A stretch of DNA of 24,000 bases from an uncultured Candidatus Bathyarchaeia archaeon (GTDB taxonomy: Archaea; Thermoproteota; Bathyarchaeia; Bathyarchaeales; Bathyarchaeaceae), in assembly GCA_964655075.1 (NCBI GenBank), contig CAZZLD010000005.1, forward strand, positions 117,741 to 141,740. The letters run 5' to 3'. The position numbers were made by a program, and so were the translations under genes. How positions within the stretch are numbered: the stretch's first letter is position 1; each line of letters begins with the position of its first letter. A model generated the notes under the pieces. The model worked only from the letters and a program-made list of their open reading frames with translations, was not told the origin of the DNA and did not search any database. Below, one piece after another: positions 9,575-21,319 of this stretch.

Positions 9575-10123
9575 TCAGGAGCCTCGTTTTGTATTTTCAT
9601 AAATGTAGGAACACAGGAGTTTCCACCATTCAGTAAGCCTTTGTGCCTCTTCAATCCATCTGCTGGTTATCTCCGGAGAAGCTTTCGTCTCTTTTGCTAA
9701 TTCTTTTGCTGACGCTTTAGCGAGATCCTCAATTGTATTTATTCCTAAGGCTTTGAGTTGTTTTTCCCTTGCGGGTTCAATGCCTTCAACTTCTGCCAGT
9801 TCAAGGGGAAGCTGGGCTGTGGTAGCGGGTTGAGAAAGGGAGAAGCGGGTCACCATCGCTTTTGACTCTTTCGTTTTCATATCCTGTCTCATCATGTAAA
9901 GACCTATTAGTATTAAGACTACGCACCCAGCGATTGGGGCGGCGAGGAGGCTGAGTTTAATTGGAGCAGGAGTGATCCAGAAATTCCAGAGGCCGGGCAA
10001 CGTTTTCGGGGGCTCTATTGAGATTAGGCAGAATATGCCGAGGAGCGTCGAAGCCGCTAGGCTGAGGGTGATTAAGCCGCCCCAGAAGACAGAGGTTTTT
10101 TCGCCTTCAAACATCTTGAACAC
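9575..10123 (-). CDS. Membrane protein (2 TM) with a C-terminal helix-hairpin-helix (DUF4332-like) domain
   Basis: Two TM helices are followed by 'VEGIEPAREKQLKALGINTIEDLAKASAKELAKETKASPEITSRWIEEAQRL', which is HhH/DUF4332-like. GTG at 10123; ATG at 10114 is an alternative start. Confidence 0.75.
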   Translation of the reverse strand: MFKMFEGEKTSVFWGGLITLSLAASTLLGIFCLISIEPPKTLPGLWNFWITPAPIKLSLLAAPIAGCVVLILIGLYMMRQDMKTKESKAMVTRFSLSQPATTAQLPLELAEVEGIEPAREKQLKALGINTIEDLAKASAKELAKETKASPEITSRWIEEAQRLTEWWKLLCSYIYENTKRGS

Positions 10124-10455
10124 GACTGTGGCTCCACTCTGTTTTTATTCGTTAAGTTAATAAATATACTCACTATTTTCGGCAGTTACTCGAATGGATG
10201 TGAAAAAAAGGTTTTGGTTAATAAATTTATCAGTTATGAACATGGGAAGATGTTTGGGTGCCATTTATTCCAATCTTTTCTTATGGCATGTGAACTATTT
10301 TTGGTAATGAGTATATGCAGGTTGATAAGCCAAGTCCGCTGTTTTCGCTGATTTTGCTCAACTAGCCGCGTGTCATTCTTCATCCCCCTTCAGCATAGAG
10401 TGGACGAGAACCCTCAGAGCCTTGAACACCTCTATGTTAGGGAACTACACGAGGA

Positions 10456-11121
10456 TTAGATTGGAAGTTTTGGTACTACGATCTTTTGTTCCTTGGGTAA
10501 ACTCTCTTTTGTGACTATAATGCTTGGACCTTTAGTTTTGTCAATGTTCTTCTTACCTTTCAGAAACTCGTCAAGGGCTATAGGCATCGACTTTGATAAC
10601 CATGGTGATGCCCCTGAGAGCCCTGTGTTGTAATGCATCGGTATAATGATTTTCGGATCTAGCTTGTTGATAACCGACCATGCTACATCAGGCCCTATAG
10701 TGGCTCCTCCCGCAACTGGCGTGAACACCACATCTACCTTGCCTACGTCCTTCGCCTGTTCTACAGTTAGGTCGTGGCCTAGGTCTCCTAGGTGACACAA
10801 CCTAAGGCCGTCAACCTCTACAACATAGACGCTGTTTTTACCCCTTTGACTGCCGCCAACGGCATCGTGTAGGGTCGCTACCCCCTTCACGAGTATGCCA
10901 TTGACCTCCTTTGCACCTACGAACCCTTCTAAGACGACCCCTCCTTCCTTAAGGACTGGTTTCGAGTTGTTGTGGTCTACGTGGCTGTGGCTACACAGGA
11001 CGACGTCAGCCTTTGCCTTCGGCTCAGGCAGACCGATTCCTCCAAAGGGGTCGAACACAATTGTGGCATTCCGGCCCTTTACTTCAAAGCAAGCGTGTCC
11101 ATGCCATATGATCTTAACCAA
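10456..11121 (-). CDS. MBL-fold metal-dependent hydrolase (UPF0173-like)
   Basis: 'IIWHGHACFEVKG...IVFDPF...DVVLCSHSHVDHNN' contains the HxHxDH metallo-beta-lactamase motif. Length is about 220 aa. Confidence 0.9.
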   Translation of the reverse strand: MVKIIWHGHACFEVKGRNATIVFDPFGGIGLPEPKAKADVVLCSHSHVDHNNSKPVLKEGGVVLEGFVGAKEVNGILVKGVATLHDAVGGSQRGKNSVYVVEVDGLRLCHLGDLGHDLTVEQAKDVGKVDVVFTPVAGGATIGPDVAWSVINKLDPKIIIPMHYNTGLSGASPWLSKSMPIALDEFLKGKKNIDKTKGPSIIVTKESLPKEQKIVVPKLPI

Positions 11122-11375
11122 CGTTCATATCTCCTTTTCAAACATTCTAGGCACAATTGGACAGAACCTTTTAATAACTTTAAGGATGTGCAAGCCTCTA
11201 CAAAACGGATATCTAGGAACCGATGAAAGCCCTCTTCAGGATTGATTGGGAGGACTGGGCATAAGAGCATATTGATAACTCTAGGGGGCGCAAGCGCACG
11301 CCCAACCACCCGCAGAGAATCGGATGCTTACATTATAAAACGCTCGGGAAAGGTTTTTGAGATTCTTATTCCGCT

Positions 11376-12668
11376 TTATCCAGGTCTGTATCTCAAGAGA
11401 GCGGCAAAGCCTCCCAGAGCTGTGAGCTTTGCTTTTTCTTCCGACTCTGTACGTATCACTTCGACCTTTGCGGCTGTCTGTGAAGCCACATCCTCTAAAA
11501 CGTCTATTATGTCCTTCTCCTCCACCTCGTATTCAACTGCGTTGCACTTCTCGCATGGGCTTGATATCATTTCTTGTATAGTTTGAACCTTCTTCTCCTT
11601 ATTCACTATCTTTGCCCTTGATAGTTCGCATCTTTTGCACATTGCAACAATTTCAATCATGTCCGTACTATCTGTTACTAGCGCAACTTCCACTTCACCG
11701 TTCTTAAGCGCGTTCAACACCGAATCTAAGCCGCAAATGGCCAAACCGTCTTGCTTGCCCATATCTGCCAGAAGGCGCTGCACGGTCCTCTTCTCCTCTG
11801 GCACACCCATATTCTTCAGTGCCTCAGATGATTTGCTAAGCACTTCTCTCACCCCTTCTCTGCCGGCGGATTGCGTATCAACTCTGCTCAGCAGCATATT
11901 CTTTAGCTCATAATGAAGGTAATCGCCCTTTAAGAAATCCTCTTTCGTTGGGCCCGGTCCTCCAACTATCAACGCCGTAACTTTATGGTTCTCGAGAAAT
12001 GCCTTTGTTGCATGCTCCGCAACCCTGTGGAAAAAGTATGTAAGTTCCATGTCACGTTCTCTTTCGTACCTTCTTTGGCTCTCCCCGCCCTTTCCAGACT
12101 TTCCTGGAATCCCCGACGTGATATTTTCGATTAATTCGAGGCGTTCACCATCGAGTATCCCAAAGCTAGCCTCCTTTGAATCCATGGCGACAAGCCCCAC
12201 AACTCTTTCGTCTCTCAGCATTTCCCTTAGCGGCTCTAACCGGAAATGGTCGTCAACCTCGTAAAGATAGGCGGTAATCGGCTCTGGTGGGACGAGCTCT
12301 TCGACGTTCAAAACTTCGCTTTCCGAATCGTTCGCGACGAAAGTTCCAGCAAATATCGCGAGCCCATTCTCTGGAATTTCCTTCTGCAGCTTTAGACGCT
12401 GGATTACATTCTTGAGGGCGTCTTGAAGGCGATCCCTAACGCTCTCAGATTTCATGACAGCAGAATCAGACTCCTCCTTGAGGATTGCGACTATCTCATC
12501 TATTGATTTCTCCCGAGGTATGTAGAGCGAGATGAACTCCATTCCCCTTCCCTCTTTGTCTGCTAGCCACGCTATGAGCTTCCTCAGTTTGTACTGTTTC
12601 ACGGAATTAGTGGTTGCCATCTGACATCCGTGAAAATGCATTACTTTTTCAGTAACCAAATTTGACAC
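11376..12668 (-). CDS. aRF1/eRF1-family protein with non-canonical NIKS, YxCxxxF and GGQ motifs (aRF1-like paralog, probably release-inactive)
   Basis: The full three-domain aRF1 layout aligns by eye to archaeal aRF1: 'GRGMEFISLYIP', 'LEPL', 'GIPGKSGKGGESQRRYERER', 'LIVGGPG.TKEDF', a CxxC..CxxC minidomain and 'GGFAALLRY'. The motif positions read SAVMKS, YEVDDHF and GGE. GTG at 12668; ATG at 12620 is an alternative start. Confidence 0.85.
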   Translation of the reverse strand: MSNLVTEKVMHFHGCQMATTNSVKQYKLRKLIAWLADKEGRGMEFISLYIPREKSIDEIVAILKEESDSAVMKSESVRDRLQDALKNVIQRLKLQKEIPENGLAIFAGTFVANDSESEVLNVEELVPPEPITAYLYEVDDHFRLEPLREMLRDERVVGLVAMDSKEASFGILDGERLELIENITSGIPGKSGKGGESQRRYERERDMELTYFFHRVAEHATKAFLENHKVTALIVGGPGPTKEDFLKGDYLHYELKNMLLSRVDTQSAGREGVREVLSKSSEALKNMGVPEEKRTVQRLLADMGKQDGLAICGLDSVLNALKNGEVEVALVTDSTDMIEIVAMCKRCELSRAKIVNKEKKVQTIQEMISSPCEKCNAVEYEVEEKDIIDVLEDVASQTAAKVEVIRTESEEKAKLTALGGFAALLRYRPG

Positions 12669-12689
12669 CTTAACATTCAGTTACAGCAG

Positions 12690-12707
12690 AAGCTAATTTA
12701 TTAGCTT
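12690..12707. promoter_or_regulatory. Perfect 8-bp-arm palindrome AAGCTAAT-TT-ATTAGCTT in a divergent promoter region
   Basis: Read directly from the sequence. It lies 22-39 nt upstream of the aRF1-like GTG. The GCTAAT/ATTAGC half-site recurs as an inverted pair at 12756-12761 / 12773-12778. Confidence 0.3.
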
Positions 12708-12873
12708 TCTTGATGCCCTGAGAATACTTTGTTTCTTCTGCCACGGGTTTTAAGTGCTAATCAAATTTCATAATTAGCTCTGGTTTAAACAAGTTTAATG
12801 AATGTTTAACATACATTTAAATAAATTGTGGTGAACGAAACATTCAAACAACGCAAAGGTAAGGGAGACATAA

Positions 12874-13158
12874 ATGAGGGTTAAAGTGAAGTATTTTACG
12901 GTTCTCAGGGAGATAACCAAAAAGAGAGAAGAAGAAATTGAGTTGCCCGAGGCGGCTACTGTTGAGGGACTGTTAAATCTTCTTTCTGAAAGGCACGGCC
13001 GCAAATTTACAGAGTATGTGTACGGCGAAGTGGAGAGGGCGCGGTCCCATCTTCAGTTCCTAGTCAACGGCAGAAACACAACAACCATGCAGGGCTTCAA
13101 AACAAAACTGAAAAACGGCGACGAAGTAGCGATTCTACCCCCAGTAGGCGGAGGGTAA
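12874..13158 (+). CDS. MoaD/ThiS-family ubiquitin-like small protein (SAMP-like), C-terminal GGG
   Basis: 'MRVKVKYFTVLREI...IELPE.ATVEGLL..L...H.....' and 'VNGRN......TKLKNGDEVAILPPVGGG*' fit a beta-grasp MoaD pattern with an exposed C-terminal Gly-Gly. Confidence 0.85.
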   Translation: MRVKVKYFTVLREITKKREEEIELPEAATVEGLLNLLSERHGRKFTEYVYGEVERARSHLQFLVNGRNTTTMQGFKTKLKNGDEVAILPPVGGG

Positions 13159-13180: not shown

Positions 13181-13843
13181 TTGTTCATAATTTGTGGAAC
13201 ATGGGAAAAGTACTACGAAACGTTGAGGCAGATACCAGATAGATGGAAGCAGCTGGTTCCCTTCGTCGTTGAGGCACTACCTACGTTCAAGCGTTACAAG
13301 TTTAATCACATGCTTGATTTGGGATGTGGTGCGGGCAGGCATTGTATCTATCTGGCGAAAAACGGGTTTAATGTTATTGGGGTTGACATTTCTAAAAGTG
13401 CATTAGAACTAGCAAAGGACTGGGGCAAGAACGAGAAGCTAGCAAACGTAAGTTTCATGCGAGCAACGATGACAGATCTTCCATTTCGTAAGCGTCAGTT
13501 CAATGCGGTGATCAGTGTCAGCGTCATACACCATGCCATGATGAAGAACATCATTAAGACTGTAGACGAAATTTATAGAGTCCTCGAGAAAAATGGGCTA
13601 TTTCTTGCAAATCTTACTTCAGTGGAGGATTATAGATACGGCGGAGGTCAGAAAGTGGAAGGGGGTACTTTTAGAATTTTGGACCATTTTGAAGAAGAAT
13701 CCGTTGAAGAGTTGCATCATTTCTTCACAAAGCAGGAGGTTTCTAAACTATTGGCTCGTTTCACTGAAGCAGAAGTAAAACCCCTTGTTGTAGGTAAAAA
13801 AGATCAACTCCATCACTGGTGGAAAATAACAGCGGTCAAGTAG
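13181..13843 (+). CDS. Class I SAM-dependent methyltransferase
   Basis: Motif I 'MLDLGCGAGRHCIYLAKNGFNVIGVDIS' and post-I/II blocks ('FNAVISVSVIHH', 'VLEKNGLF'). The TTG start directly follows GGGGGAGGA, so the start is uncertain. Confidence 0.85.
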   Translation: MFIICGTWEKYYETLRQIPDRWKQLVPFVVEALPTFKRYKFNHMLDLGCGAGRHCIYLAKNGFNVIGVDISKSALELAKDWGKNEKLANVSFMRATMTDLPFRKRQFNAVISVSVIHHAMMKNIIKTVDEIYRVLEKNGLFLANLTSVEDYRYGGGQKVEGGTFRILDHFEEESVEELHHFFTKQEVSKLLARFTEAEVKPLVVGKKDQLHHWWKITAVK

Positions 13844-17401: not shown

Positions 17402-19254
17402 CTTATCTTGCTCCCGACTTTCACGGTTTTCTCCGGTTTAAGTAGAGAAACACCTTTTTCGTCTTCCGCGGCTAAGATCATAACCTCCGATTCGACGCCG
17501 AAGACGTGCCTCGGCTGAAGATTAGTCACAACCGCAACCTGTATTCCCTGAAGCTGTTCAGGAGCATAAAATCGGGCGATGCCCGCTACAGCCTGTTTTG
17601 TTTCGCCTTCGCCGATGTCGATGGTTAGCTTAACGAGGTTTTTGGATTTGGAAATAGCCTCTGCCTTCACGATTTTGCCTATTCGAAGGTCTAACTTCGA
17701 GAAATCTTCAAACGAAACTTTTTCTGGAATTGACACTTTTCTTTTCTCCTTTGTTGGCACTTCCTTTCTGATATCTTCTATTTTTTTGAACAGTGGTTTA
17801 GGCTTGTTTATTTTGTGTCCGCTTTTAATAGTTATTTGTGCTGTTGAGTCCCACTTTTGTTTGTGGACAGAATTTGCCAAGTTTAATTGATGCCACAGGT
17901 TTTCAGCTGAAGATGGAAGATACGGTTCAAGCAAAACAGCCAAGTTTCTGACGGCGTTTACGCAGAGAAACAAACATGTATTAGCCTTCTCTTTTCTAGC
18001 CCAAGGTTGCTTCTGTTGGAAGTATCGATTACAGAAACTTGAGAATCCCAAAATTTTGTTTAATCCTCGATCTAATCGTATGTTCTCTAACTCCTTAGAA
18101 ACCTTTGCGCCAAGAGCCTTGATCTGTCCTTCAAATTCTTTATCCGACGCGTCATATTCTTCTGCTTCAGGCACTTTTCCGTCGAATCTAGTCCAGATGA
18201 AAGTCAGCGTTCTGTGAATAAAATTCCCGACATTGTCAACCAATTCGTTATTGAATCGACTCTTCAAGCTCTCCTCGGAGAAGTCGCCGTCCTCCCCGAA
18301 GGCAACTTCTCTGAACAGAAAATATCTAAGGGCGTCAACAGAATACTTTTCAGCCAAATACAGAGGGTCTATCGCGTTGCCTAAGCTCTTGCTTATTTTC
18401 TGGCCATTAATAGTTAAGAATCCGTGGGCAAAGACTGTTTCGGGCAAATCGTAACCGGCACTCAGCAGCATTCCAGGCCATATAATCGCGTGGAACCGCA
18501 AGATGTCTTTAGCTATAAATTGTACCTTCGCTGGCCAATATTCTCCAGCAACCAGATAGTTCACTAAAGCATCAAACCAAACCCAAAAACGGTGCTTACT
18601 ATCAATCGGTAATTCAATTCCCCACTCAAGATTAGGCCTAGAGATGCTGATGTCTCTGAGGCCCTCTTTAATGAAGCTAACCACTTCGCTTCTTCGAGCT
18701 TTCGGCTGGATAAAATCAGGGTTTTCCTCGATGTATTTCAACAGTTTTTCTTGATACGCAGATAATTTGAAGAAATAGTTCTCTTCCTTTATGACCTTCG
18801 GAGCTTTTTTATGTAAAGCGCATTTGCCGTCCACTAAGTCACTTTCAGTTAGAAAAGCTTCGCAGCCTTCGCAATACAGGCCTTTGTACTTTCCTTTGTA
18901 GATGTCTCCCTTCTCGTAGACACGCAAGAAGAACTTCTTAACGTTCTCCTTGTGCCTATTCTCAGTCGTTCTGATGAAATCGTCATTGCTTATGTCTAAG
19001 GTTCTCCAAGCGTTTTTCCATTTTTCAGCCATAGAATCCGCATATTTTTGAATATCCTTGGCCCCTCGTTCTTTGGCTGCCTGCACAGTCTTTGCTGAAT
19101 TCTCATCTAAGCCTGTGAGAAAATATACATCGTCTCCTCTGAGTCGGTACCATCTAGCTAAGATATCCGCAGCCACGGTTGTGTAAGTATGCCCGATATG
19201 AGGCACGTCATTCACGTAATAAATCGGCGTAGTTACAAGCACCTTATCCTTCAA
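17398..19254 (-). CDS. metG: Methionine--tRNA ligase with a C-terminal EMAP/Trbp111-like tRNA-binding domain
   Basis: 'TTPIYYVNDVPHIGHTYTTV' (HIGH), 'KISKSLGN' (KMSKS), a CxxC..C knuckle 'CEGCEAF...DGKCALH', and the C-terminal 'DLRIGKIVKAEAISKSKNLVKLTIDIGE'. The start is set at TTG 19254 (MKDKVLVTTPIYY). The tracked ORF extends to ATG 19425. Confidence 0.95.
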   Translation of the reverse strand: MKDKVLVTTPIYYVNDVPHIGHTYTTVAADILARWYRLRGDDVYFLTGLDENSAKTVQAAKERGAKDIQKYADSMAEKWKNAWRTLDISNDDFIRTTENRHKENVKKFFLRVYEKGDIYKGKYKGLYCEGCEAFLTESDLVDGKCALHKKAPKVIKEENYFFKLSAYQEKLLKYIEENPDFIQPKARRSEVVSFIKEGLRDISISRPNLEWGIELPIDSKHRFWVWFDALVNYLVAGEYWPAKVQFIAKDILRFHAIIWPGMLLSAGYDLPETVFAHGFLTINGQKISKSLGNAIDPLYLAEKYSVDALRYFLFREVAFGEDGDFSEESLKSRFNNELVDNVGNFIHRTLTFIWTRFDGKVPEAEEYDASDKEFEGQIKALGAKVSKELENIRLDRGLNKILGFSSFCNRYFQQKQPWARKEKANTCLFLCVNAVRNLAVLLEPYLPSSAENLWHQLNLANSVHKQKWDSTAQITIKSGHKINKPKPLFKKIEDIRKEVPTKEKRKVSIPEKVSFEDFSKLDLRIGKIVKAEAISKSKNLVKLTIDIGEGETKQAVAGIARFYAPEQLQGIQVAVVTNLQPRHVFGVESEVMILAAEDEKGVSLLKPEKTVKVGSKIR

Positions 19255-19435
19255 CACAACCACATCTGAGATTTTGGTGAGCGTGGTACACTTCCGAGCT
19301 TTGATTTTGTGAATAATGACTTCGCCTCTTGTACTTAAAGCCAACGCAGTCGGTTGAAGTGCTGTGAGTGAGATAAGACAGATGCCTTCAATTTTGCATG
19401 TTTTGCAGATGTGACATTGAGGCATAAGTTACGGA

Positions 19436-19588
19436 GTGAGCATAACAAGGGATAAAATCCAAGATTTGATCAGCTTCCTTAAGCGGAAAAGCGAAGAAAG
19501 AACGCTCACTCTTGTTTACGCGGCTTGGGATGAGAAACATGACAGTGCAGTGGCTCTTAAAACGTTCCTTGAAGGCCATGTTGAATAA
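19436..19588 (+). pseudogene. C-terminal remnant of a DUF488/YeaO-family gene (50 codons)
   Basis: 'RDKIQDLISFLKRKSEERTLTLVYAAWDEKHDSAVALKTFLEGHVE' resembles the C-terminus of E. coli YeaO as I remember it ('...LADIAKKQPLTLLYSAKNTTQNHALVLADWL'). An in-frame TGA lies 6 codons upstream of the GTG. No intact N-terminal half is found in any frame. Confidence 0.5.
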
Positions 19589-19946
19589 CACGTGTTCCGG
19601 GCGCCGTAAGAATATTGTATATAGCTGAAAAACGAGATTATGAACGTAATTTGTGCAAATTTGGTGCGGGGGGTTAGGTTTGGACATCGGTTTAGATTCT
19701 CGGTTTGATCGGATCAGAAACTTGCTAGAGCGTTAAGCATCGAGGCATTGTCAGTTTGATGATTGACAAGAGAAAAAGGATTCGGATTTCTCGCGCATCT
19801 GCAGACCTGTGTGGACTATAAAAGGCTAAAATGGCTTGTTTTTACAAAAAAAGTTAGATACTTGTACTAATTTCCTTAAAAGCTCCAAAACTTAGATGTC
19901 TGTACCATAACGCCTTAATTATGCCGTGTTTTTACTTCTACTGTAA

Positions 19947-20408
19947 ATGGTGACGGAGGTGAAAAGCACGAAAGCATGGAAAAAGGCATTACCTATTCTT
20001 GCTATTGCTCTAGTCTTAGTTCCTGGTCTATTCTTTGTAGCTCATGCACAGACGTCGACAGCGACGCCGACGGCAGCAAACCCTAACAATAACGTGAACG
20101 AGCAGTATCCCAATTATACTGGTTCCGTAAAGGCTCCAGAGAACGCTACAGATCAACAGCTTGCAGCTCTAGCGACAATCAGTCCGGACCAGGCAAAGGC
20201 TTCAGCTCTCAAAGACCCAACGGTTGCTGGAGGCACGGTTACAAGCGTTTCACTGGACGATGAAAACGGAAACTTGGTGTACTCGGTGGAGATTGCTAAA
20301 GGCTCAACCAGTTATGACGTGAAAGTCGATGCTGGAACTGGAGGCGTATTGTTTATCGACCAAGGCATCGAGAATGAAGTCGGCGCTGTAGAAAATTTAG
20401 AAGACTAG
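19947..20408 (+). CDS. Secreted or membrane-anchored PepSY domain protein
   Basis: N-terminal signal/anchor 'ALPILAIALVLVPGLFFVAHA', then 'ISPDQAKASALKDP..GGTVTSVSLDDENGNLVYSVEIAKGSTSYDVKVDAGTGGVL', a PepSY pattern. Confidence 0.8.
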   Translation: MVTEVKSTKAWKKALPILAIALVLVPGLFFVAHAQTSTATPTAANPNNNVNEQYPNYTGSVKAPENATDQQLAALATISPDQAKASALKDPTVAGGTVTSVSLDDENGNLVYSVEIAKGSTSYDVKVDAGTGGVLFIDQGIENEVGAVENLED

Positions 20409-20475
20409 CAATGACAATTGAGCCCAAAGCATTAATTTCCCTTTTTTTCTAGTACATTAACGGAGCCGATAATGT

Positions 20476-21027
20476 TTGAAGAAAACCTCTGGAACGAGGA
20501 AGAAAATCTATGACTACATACAAGAACATCCTGGCTCGCATTTACGTGAGATCGGGAGGAACCTAGACTTGGCGATTGGCGACATACAGTATCAATTGAA
20601 CGTTTTAGAGAAGGCAGGTCACGTTGTTTCTAAGAGAATGGGAATTTACAAACGTTTTTATTTAAGCAAGATGTTTGGTGAAAGGCAGAAAGACATTGTA
20701 GGAACATTGTCGCAAGAGACTCCAAGAAAAATTTTGCTTTTGCTACTGCATAAGCCTGGCGCTGGTCACGGAGAAGTTGCAAGGTTTGCAAAAGTGTCGG
20801 CTCCAACTGTGACATGGCACATGAAAAGGTTGATTGATGAAGGATTAGTTGAGGTGCATCGTGAGGGACGAAACGTGAAGTATTACATCAGTGGTTCTGC
20901 TGGGGACATTGAAAAGGTTATGAAGAGCTATCACCCAATGTTCTGGGAGAGGTGGGCGGATAGGTTTGCAGAGGTCTGGTTAGACCTATCAACCTACAAG
21001 AAGAAGGAGGAACGAGAGAGTGTTTGA
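20476..21027 (+). CDS. Transcriptional regulator with two tandem winged-helix (ArsR/MarR-like) domains
   Basis: wHTH 1 is 'IYDYIQEHPGSHLREIGRNLDLAIGDIQYQLNVLEKAGHVVSKR'. wHTH 2 is 'ILLLLLHKPGAGHGEVARFAKVSAPTVTWHMKRLIDEGLVEVHREGRNVKYYI'. TTG start. Confidence 0.8.
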   Translation: MKKTSGTRKKIYDYIQEHPGSHLREIGRNLDLAIGDIQYQLNVLEKAGHVVSKRMGIYKRFYLSKMFGERQKDIVGTLSQETPRKILLLLLHKPGAGHGEVARFAKVSAPTVTWHMKRLIDEGLVEVHREGRNVKYYISGSAGDIEKVMKSYHPMFWERWADRFAEVWLDLSTYKKKEERESV

Positions 21028-21319
21028 AGGACTTGACATAGCAGAGCTGCTTAAACTAGGCTCAGGATTATTTGCTCTTATTCTTCTATTCATATCGCTA
21101 CTAGCGTACTACAGAAGCAGGCAAAGAAGGCTCCTCTTTGTTTCAGGCGCATTCGGTCTTTATTTCATTAAGATAATCATTGAACATCTAGACCTTTTCA
21201 TTCCTAATATAGAAACTTCGTTCTTGGACTTGCTTTTGGCATTCATCGACTTCATCATACTCTTACTGTTTTTCCTTGCCATAGTAAAAAGCGATAGAAA
21301 AGGTGCGACGTCTTCATGA
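21020..21319 (+). CDS. Small integral membrane protein (about 3 TM), unknown function
   Basis: GTG at 21020 is preceded by GGAGG with a 9-nt spacer and overlaps the regulator 3' end by 8 nt. Three hydrophobic segments are present. Confidence 0.65.
   Translation: MFEGLDIAELLKLGSGLFALILLFISLLAYYRSRQRRLLFVSGAFGLYFIKIIIEHLDLFIPNIETSFLDLLLAFIDFIILLLFFLAIVKSDRKGATSS

Follow-up and report, generated by a model that had tools for sequence, protein, structure and literature searches.

Is a protein that passes the profile cut-offs for the archaeal class-I release factor aRF1 necessarily the factor that terminates translation in its cell? The question is raised by a gene on the minus strand of a 24,000-nucleotide stretch of DNA from an uncultured Candidatus Bathyarchaeia archaeon (contig CAZZLD010000005.1 of assembly GCA_964655075.1, positions 117,741 to 141,740), referred to below in its whole length as the window. 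The initial annotation of this stretch, made from the letters alone, had recognised an aRF1-family protein in which all three functional signature motifs are altered, NIKS to VMKS, YxCxxxF to YxVxxxF and GGQ to GGE, and had doubted that it is the release factor of the cell. The aRF1 paralog of the window and its relatives are termed V here. V is an intact gene under purifying selection, with constraint relaxed at the tips responsible for codon reading and for positioning the catalytic water, and it keeps no fixed chromosomal position. It is very probably an accessory paralog of aRF1 and not the terminator. As to what it does instead, the proposal that V is a codon-independent factor of the ribosomal A site, acting in rescue or hibernation, stands at an even balance between right and wrong.

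Fold, motifs and extent of clade V

The list of open reading frames (ORFs) of the window confirms an aRF1-family frame at 11376..12668 on the minus strand. The frame that had been proposed thus exists, but its start has to be moved: an alignment of 12 loci shows that relatives keep neither the GTG at 12668 nor the ATG lying in frame upstream, and V therefore likely starts at ATG 12620. The features of the gene and its product are as follows.

11376..12620, minus strand: V coding sequence, 414 amino acids, ATG start 12618-12620, TAA stop 11376-11378
12216..12620, minus strand: N domain, residues 1-135 (Pfam eRF1_1 at 14-135), the decoding domain in canonical aRF1
12537..12545, minus strand: G-M-E at the position of the GTS/GTE loop, Met for the canonical Thr, varying within the V clade
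12447..12458, minus strand: VMKS at the position of NIKS (GTC ATG AAA TCT), aligned to PDB entry 4af1
12243..12263, minus strand: YEVDDHF at the position of YxCxxxF, Val for Cys
11811..12215, minus strand: M domain, residues 136-270 (Pfam eRF1_2 at 6.2e-35)
12045..12119, minus strand: peptidyl-transferase-centre loop TSGIPGKSGKGGESQRRYERERDME, residues 168-192, near-invariant in the clade save for residue 180
12081..12089, minus strand: GGE at the position of GGQ (GGC GGG GAG, with GAG at 12081-12083)
11379..11810, minus strand: C domain, residues 271-414 (Pfam eRF1_3 match)
11544-11639, minus strand: CxxC..CxxC insertion in the C domain (C328, C331, C356, C359)
11385-11414, minus strand: C-terminal GGFAALLRYR in the C domain

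The end-to-end homology with aRF1 that had been seen by eye holds in profile searches. The protein scores 384.5 bits against the NCBIfam model TIGR03676 (cut-off 234.7) and 49.2, 120.9 and 55.5 bits against the Pfam domains eRF1_1, eRF1_2 and eRF1_3, each above its cut-off, and its best solved relative is the archaeal aRF1 of PDB entry 4af1 (E = 1.6e-64). The residue-level alignment with 4af1 and the hidden Markov model (HMM) both place VMKS beneath NIKS, YEVDDHF beneath YxCxxxF and GGE beneath GGQ, and no canonical version of these motifs was found elsewhere in the protein by HMM or pairwise alignment. An AlphaFold (AF2) model with a confidence score (pLDDT) of 80 retrieves aRF1/eRF1 first in Foldseek (3e-37), followed by Balon (1e-16) and Pelota (5e-14). 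Against the pelota equivalog TIGR00111 the protein reaches 74.4 bits, through the M and C domains only (cut-off 177.65), and against the Balon/Rv2629 family NF052289 34.6 bits (cut-off 320). V therefore has the architecture and profile scores of aRF1, lacks the motifs of a release factor and falls outside the Pelota and Balon models. The three-domain fold with an intact C domain had been described correctly, and its CxxC..CxxC pair and C-terminal GGFAALLRYR are present and conserved.

The altered codons themselves are secure. Re-reading the DNA returned GTC ATG AAA TCT at 12447-12458 and GGC GGG GAG at 12081-12089, exactly as first quoted. The GAG is not an assembly error, since the identical codon occurs in three independent assemblies (loci L003, L011 and L044) and 14-16 database homologs of V likewise read GGE.

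More than 140 sequences make up clade V, and almost all of them come from Bathyarchaeia of peat and soil. Among 5.8 billion proteins searched there were 120 matches at 83-100% identity, which are labelled Bathyarchaeia aRF-1 where the source names them. YEVDDHF is conserved among these matches, the NIKS equivalent takes the form of many differing xxKS strings, and the third residue of GGQ is Q in 51, S in 34, E in 14, W in 13, M in 7 and A in one. Over 142 V sequences the counts at this residue (180) are Q 57, S 47, E 16, W 12, M 7, A 2 and L 1. GTDB species genomes, when scanned, contained 50 V loci. Nearly all of these belong to metagenome-assembled genomes (MAGs) that have Bathyarchaeia or Bathyarchaeota in their titles and were recovered from peat, permafrost or soil (SPRUCE, Microflora Danica, Stordalen palsa, Chersky), and one lies on a complete 2.35-Mb chromosome, OY970176.1, in the GGM form. 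Across loci the codon at the Gln site is CAG/CAA (Q), TCN (S), GAG (E; the window, L003, L011 and L044), GCG (A) or ATG (M).

The loss of all three motifs that had been read from the window sequence is therefore general in two of them only. NIKS, the Cys of YxCxxxF and the Thr of the GTS loop are absent from 41 of 41 aligned V sequences, and the NIKS loop varies in sequence and length, with insertions and deletions across the clade; the Gln of GGQ, by contrast, is kept in 57 of 142. Basal V lineages (55-70% identical) all carry GGQ, yet are already without NIKS and the Cys, which indicates that decoding was lost first and the Gln later and more than once. The phylogeny suggested as a check does show a distinct clade, but not one that conserves GGE and VMKS: this combination is one state of relaxed positions and no conserved new motif.

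Several observations concern the records in which V occurs. Two MAGs each hold two V copies, JBEKPM01 (L009 and L029, 83% and 73% identical to window V) and DATHCB01 (L028 and L031, 72% and 83%), so that either these genomes have two copies or the bins are mixed. In six loci from long-read Microflora Danica MAGs (L036, L040, L042, L043, L046 and L047) V is split over two or three frames, probably through homopolymer sequencing errors and not because these copies are pseudogenes. The V contigs of L014, L030 and L032, and likewise the protein P0022, are deposited in MAGs named after bacteria (Acidoferrum, Sulfotelmatobacter, Limnocylindrales and Zixibacteria), likely a result of binning contamination, and a few other V records are titled Nitrososphaeria or Conexivisphaerales. 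Beyond the clade, the metagenome clusters P0171, P0196, P0224, P0226, P0246 and P0256 are aRF1-like and lack NIKS and/or the Cys of YxCxxxF (for example YRRNHKF, YRTEKKF and YYVDNHF) with GGQ mostly kept; divergent aRF1 paralogs may thus be more widespread than clade V.

A canonical aRF1 beside V and the selection on V

The contig of locus L026 (CAWJIN010000022.1), a 146-kb long-read contig of a Bathyarchaeota MAG, carries an ortholog 89% identical to window V at 10001-11239 and a canonical aRF1 at 18857-20125, 7.6 kb away. The latter is a 422-amino-acid protein with GTASNIKS, YRCDSRF and KAGGQSARRYERLR (GGQ), is 36.5% identical to V and has the flanking genes typical of canonical loci in metagenomes. 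Used as a query it recovered at least 503 relatives from metagenomes of peat and wetland; all 77 of the full-length relatives carry GGQ, NIKS and YRCDSRF (77/77 for each), and their median ratio of nonsynonymous to synonymous substitution rates (dN/dS) is 0.051. V itself is dispensable in some lineages, since two loci hold only wrecked copies: in L049 (10001-10459) V is truncated by a stop after residue 153, and in L051 (~9950-10450) a remnant of the GKTVKGGQ type is multiply frameshifted and contains an in-frame stop. No Pelota was seen in 1.26 Mb of related-locus sequence, an uninformative absence.

That V is the sole, non-canonical release factor of these Bathyarchaeia is accordingly highly improbable. 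NCBI and JGI do label V as aRF-1, it exceeds the equivalog cut-off of TIGR03676, and among 1.84 billion cluster representatives the nearest canonical sequences all come from other classes. Set against this are the canonical factor on the V contig of L026, the relatives of that factor in the same peat and wetland metagenomes, the V pseudogenes, the near-neutral Gln site and the use of all three stop codons in the window. As had been proposed, there is no sign of stop-codon reassignment: 17 Pfam-supported window genes end in TAA (7), TAG (6) or TGA (4). The doubt expressed at the outset that V is the release factor of the cell is thus upheld both by the co-resident canonical gene and by the truncated and frameshifted copies in other MAGs.

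Pairwise comparison of V genes gave a median dN/dS of 0.176 over 488 pairs (range 0.11-0.41), which is 3.5 times that of Bathyarchaeia canonical aRF1; the ratio lies around 0.18 in all three domains (N 0.21, M 0.14, the lowest, and C 0.18). As a baseline of conservation served the 61 positions at which 40 diverse canonical a/eRF1 proteins agree to 90% or more; V keeps 41 of these positions, switches five to a new conserved residue and frees 15. The freed positions include T27 of the GTS loop, A54, I56, K57 and S58 of TASNIKS, T61, R62, V65 and Q180. The switch C122V in YxCxxxF is found in 93% of V sequences, with Cys in 40 of 40 canonical factors. C328, C331, C356, C359, G403, G404, L409 and R410 are kept by V and canonical factors alike, and a further 44 conserved residues are specific to the clade.

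Codon-wise counts on a tree of 42 V genes resolve this pattern to single sites. Codons 55 and 56 of the NIKS loop evolve at an omega of about 1.0 and 0.9, whereas V122 is held at 0.09. Codon 180, the Gln site, has an omega of about 0.57 (15 nonsynonymous and 9 synonymous changes); a test for positive selection at this site was negative, and the drift is therefore one of relaxation. The adjoining glycines G178 and G179 have an omega of 0, with no nonsynonymous change against 8 and 13 synonymous ones, S181 has 0.03, and within the peptidyl-transferase-centre loop R183, R184, E186, R187 and R189 are invariant along with these three. Fixed in V are thus the GG backbone, the loop TSGIPGKSGKGG-x-SQRRYERERDME, the zinc-ribbon cysteines and the C-terminal GGFAALLRYR. 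Strong purifying selection also remains on the core of the M domain and on that surface of the C domain which aEF1-alpha and ABCE1 are predicted to use.

These values leave very little room for a functionless duplicate that is decaying into a pseudogene, a reading that is strongly disfavoured and the least probable of those considered. The relaxed catalytic and decoding residues, the two clear pseudogenes and the raised dN/dS would fit it; the more than 140 intact full-length copies across 55-100% identity, the constraint on all three domains, the 44 clade-specific residues and the invariant GG codons amid synonymous change do not.

More weight is due to the possibility that V is a working peptide-release factor whose codon specificity is altered or gone, either as a terminator specialised for particular contexts or as a codon-independent hydrolase in the manner of ArfB/ICT1, with catalysis by the GG backbone tolerating S, E, W, M or A at the third position. 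It is rather unlikely all the same. The invariance of GG and its flanking loop, the retention of GGQ in the basal lineages and the M domain being the most constrained of the V domains all speak for it. Mutagenesis of RF1 and eRF1 points the same way, as hydrolysis in vitro does not strictly depend on the Gln side chain, and partial release activity survives there in many mutants of bacterial RF1 and eRF1 that have the Gln replaced. However, the near-neutral course of residue 180 towards side chains as disparate as E, W, M, S and A suggests that catalytic efficiency is unselected, the degenerate decoding loop with its insertions and deletions makes no defined codon specificity evident, and Q occupies the site in every canonical factor examined, in the 77 relatives of the L026 protein as well as in the 40 diverse factors.

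Genomic position and ancestry of V

At the DNA level the window resembles each related locus only over the V gene and about 50-90 nucleotides on each side, and among V loci in general the shared unit consists of the gene with at most ~165 nucleotides upstream and ~135 nucleotides downstream. In the window these flanks are:

12621..12710, minus strand: upstream stretch moving with the V gene, with an A/T-rich TATA-like box at ~12692-12703 and a leader; similarity ends at ~12710
11335..11375, minus strand: downstream stretch moving with the V gene; similarity to related loci ends at 11324-11335

The TATA-like box would be a candidate promoter element. The ATG start lies between the arms of a conserved inverted repeat, tgcattttcacgga / tccgtgaaacag, whose core is perfect over 9 bp (window 12592-12640, minus strand). 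The repeat recurs in L006 and other loci and may form a hairpin for translational control. An Rfam scan of the window gave no match.

The 2-kb flanks of V genes were compared by blastn with those of canonical aRF1 genes, a pair being counted if at least one flank is shared. Pairs sharing a flank, by DNA identity of the gene, are:

At least 95%: V 0/3, canonical aRF1 3/3
90-95%: V 4/45, canonical aRF1 14/14
85-90%: V 3/41, canonical aRF1 21/21
80-85%: V 1/68, canonical aRF1 107/107
Below 80%: V 26/367, canonical aRF1 320/320

Even V genes that are 85-95% identical thus share a flank in 7 of 86 pairs, whereas canonical aRF1 does so in all 465. No conserved operon surrounds V, at most 9 of about 50 loci having a neighbour in common, and the adjacent genes are unrelated ordinary ones such as enolase, fumarase, aldo-keto reductase, P-type ATPase and glycogen phosphorylase, in one case a DDE transposase. 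One subclade of about eight loci stays put between EndA-like and MtnA-like genes. Two short-read contigs, L132 (Logan SRR14802573_184096) and L133 (Logan SRR14802572_20337), encode proteins identical to the ThiS-like and metallo-beta-lactamase (MBL)-fold neighbours of V in the window and stop inside V, at about window positions 12533 and 11412, which suggests that the assembly graph breaks where several genomes of the sample have a stretch in common; such ends are expected if one sequence occurs in more than one context in the community. A search through these identical neighbours for an empty site without V matched only contigs that break at V.

The ancestry of V also differs from that of its host class. 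Outside the clade, the clusters nearest to V among the 1.84 billion representatives searched consist of canonical aRF1 proteins of Nitrososphaerales/Thaumarchaeota. In neighbour-joining trees V is monophyletic with 100% bootstrap support and groups with Nitrososphaeria (and one unnamed sequence) at 96%; a grouping with Bathyarchaeia canonical aRF1 receives 0%. The affinity is seen in every domain: window V is 51, 57 and 45% identical to a Nitrososphaeria factor in the N, M and C domains, compared with 38, 42 and 30% for the Bathyarchaeia canonical factor. On the simplest reading V would be a Nitrososphaeria-type aRF1 that a Bathyarchaeia lineage gained horizontally and that then changed in function; the tree is distance-based, and an old duplication followed by loss may be the origin instead. 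P0121-P0125 (45-51% identical) were considered as the canonical partner of V and set aside, being aRF1 of Nitrososphaerales/Thaumarchaeota, many with inteins; other near representatives were dismissed in the same way, as they belong to Caldarchaeum, Helarchaeota and Marsarchaeota.

The inteins form an observation of their own. Many aRF1 genes of Nitrososphaeria and other archaea carry them exactly at two functional motifs, before the Cys of YxCxxxF (..LYM|CLSPG...VHN|CDDHF) and after GGQ (..KGGQ|CVSS...LHN|SARRYER). Such proteins (Pfam PF14890) are 500-1450 amino acids long and account for about 40 of the 150 best cluster representatives; P0121, P0122, P0123, P0125 and P0129 are among them.

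Position and ancestry together raise the possibility that V is a mobile or conflict gene, be it a defence effector that shuts down ribosomes, a decoy for some agent directed at aRF1, or a selfish cassette. What V does would then depend on its movement between genomes and not on housekeeping translation. This possibility is favoured by the scarcity of shared flanks among closely related V genes, by homology that ends so close to the gene, by the contigs with the neighbours of the window breaking inside the ends of V, by the unrelated neighbours with one adjacent transposase and by the foreign ancestry. On the other hand, no tRNA sites, terminal inverted repeats, target duplications or integrase were found at V loci, the best scores against defence and phage families (PADLOC E 0.02, PHROG E 0.047) amount to no match, and no relatives of V were found on IMG/VR viral contigs. 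The GC content of V, overall and at third codon positions (GC3), equals that of its neighbours, the omega of at most 1 at the tip residues signals relaxation and no arms race, and the subclade between EndA-like and MtnA-like genes is stable. A role tied to movement is therefore improbable, on a par with that of a working release factor.

On the plus strand, opposite and upstream of V, the window carries a ThiS/MoaD-like protein (12874-13158) and a class-I S-adenosylmethionine (SAM) methyltransferase (13181-13843); as neither adjoins V in other genomes, no link to V is drawn. Farther away, a 1.5-kb stretch of the window (19718-21196) encoding a PepSY-domain protein and a regulator with a double winged helix-turn-helix (wHTH) is 86.6% identical to positions 1-1480 of L027, where it lies ~8.5 kb upstream of a V gene whose protein is 71% identical to that of the window; the intervening genes differ.

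Proposed function and relation to known factors

The preferred reading of V as a codon-independent A-site factor can be given a mechanism, which is itself tentative and somewhat less secure than the reading as a whole. It is proposed that aEF1-alpha-GTP would bring V to the ribosomal A site with no codon recognition, that the N domain would dock at the decoding centre over any codon or none, and that the GG loop would still enter the peptidyl-transferase centre. The targets of V would be ribosomes that have stalled or stand idle, and it would not serve in normal termination. The Pelota-like rescue or regulatory role suggested at the outset is thus plausible. V could act in rescue, recruiting ABCE1 for splitting with peptidyl-tRNA hydrolysis weak or optional, or else as a Balon-like placeholder of the A site during dormancy.

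Several points weigh against this reading. Ribosome binding, delivery by aEF1-alpha and recruitment of ABCE1 are all predicted from conserved residues. V may still release peptides, because 57 of 142 sequences and the basal lineages keep GGQ and the Gln is not strictly needed for hydrolysis in vitro. A housekeeping role in rescue or hibernation does not predict a non-syntenic, cassette-like spread, and there is no conserved neighbourhood that hints at a pathway. Finally, co-residence with canonical aRF1 is direct in one relative, L026, and would extend by analogy to the genome of the window, of whose 195-kb contig 24 kb were covered.

Among known factors V is closest to canonical aRF1 (TIGR03676; PDB 4af1 and 3agk), with which it has in common fold and length, a score above the family cut-off, the GG with the loop SxxRYxRxR, GGPGPTK, CxxC..CxxC and the C-terminal GG(F/I)AAxLRY. 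It differs in the replacement of NIKS, of the YxCxxxF Cys, of the GTS-loop Thr and, in the window, of the GGQ Gln, at positions that are near-neutral, and unlike the resident canonical gene it is an extra, non-syntenic copy that evolves 3.5 times faster. Extra copies as such are known: two aRF1 genes are present in 4.3% of archaeal genomes sampled, and in M. barkeri stop-codon recognition has been shown for only one of the two copies (PMC12626013). The Methanosarcina aRF1-2 and the two-copy archaea in general resemble V in L026 in having an additional homolog beside a working one, but V likely arose independently of aRF1-2 since it groups with Nitrososphaeria aRF1. No report of a neutral Gln position or of lost synteny in two-copy archaea was found in the literature searched.

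Pelota/aDom34 is likewise an A-site factor of the aRF1 family that is delivered by aEF1-alpha, works with ABCE1 independently of stop codons and has no catalytic Gln; V, however, has a full eRF1-type N domain and a long GG loop, both absent from Pelota, and its structural match to Pelota is far weaker than that to aRF1. Balon is a hibernation factor of the aeRF1 family that occupies the A site without NIKS or GGQ and is delivered by EF-Tu (10.1101/2022.11.24.517861). It is ~10% identical to aRF1 and has an HP motif of its own and a lasso loop in place of the GG loop, whereas V derives from aRF1 recently, at 45-57% identity, and has retained the GG loop. The likeness in structure between V and Balon is one at superfamily level. 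ArfB/ICT1 offers a functional analogy only: it acts on stalled ribosomes independently of the codon through a GG(Q) loop, but it has the unrelated fold of bacterial release factors and keeps GGQ strictly.

A bolder proposal, possible but doubtful, is that V represents a new kind of archaeal factor, a horizontally acquired, single-gene, position-hopping derivative of aRF1 that is codon-blind and independent of the Gln. It would be either a counterpart of Balon, that is a rescue or hibernation factor at an early stage of its divergence from a true release factor, or a conflict gene that targets the ribosome and spreads among Bathyarchaeia; the doubt applies to the proposal with both variants taken together. 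In literature covered incompletely, no paper was found on a Bathyarchaeia aRF1 paralog, on an aRF1 family with a drifting Gln or on a non-syntenic aRF1.

To our knowledge GGQ is regarded as universally invariant in class-I release factors. Extra aRF1 copies of unassigned function are already known, and it is the drift of the Gln under an invariant GG loop, together with the cassette-like distribution, that would surprise specialists. The non-syntenic spread of a gene for a translation factor is unusual in itself. There is also a practical side: as V passes the equivalog cut-off, pipelines label it "aRF-1", and this label can mislead inference of the genetic code, counts of single-copy markers and phylogenies of Bathyarchaeia. 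For the family, V amounts to a natural mutagenesis series, in which the GG loop is strictly selected while the Gln drifts through Q, S, E, W, M and A, and which allows one to ask what the GG loop does besides catalysis. V would also represent, within an abundant uncultured class, an intermediate between a true release factor and the codon-blind A-site factors Pelota and Balon.

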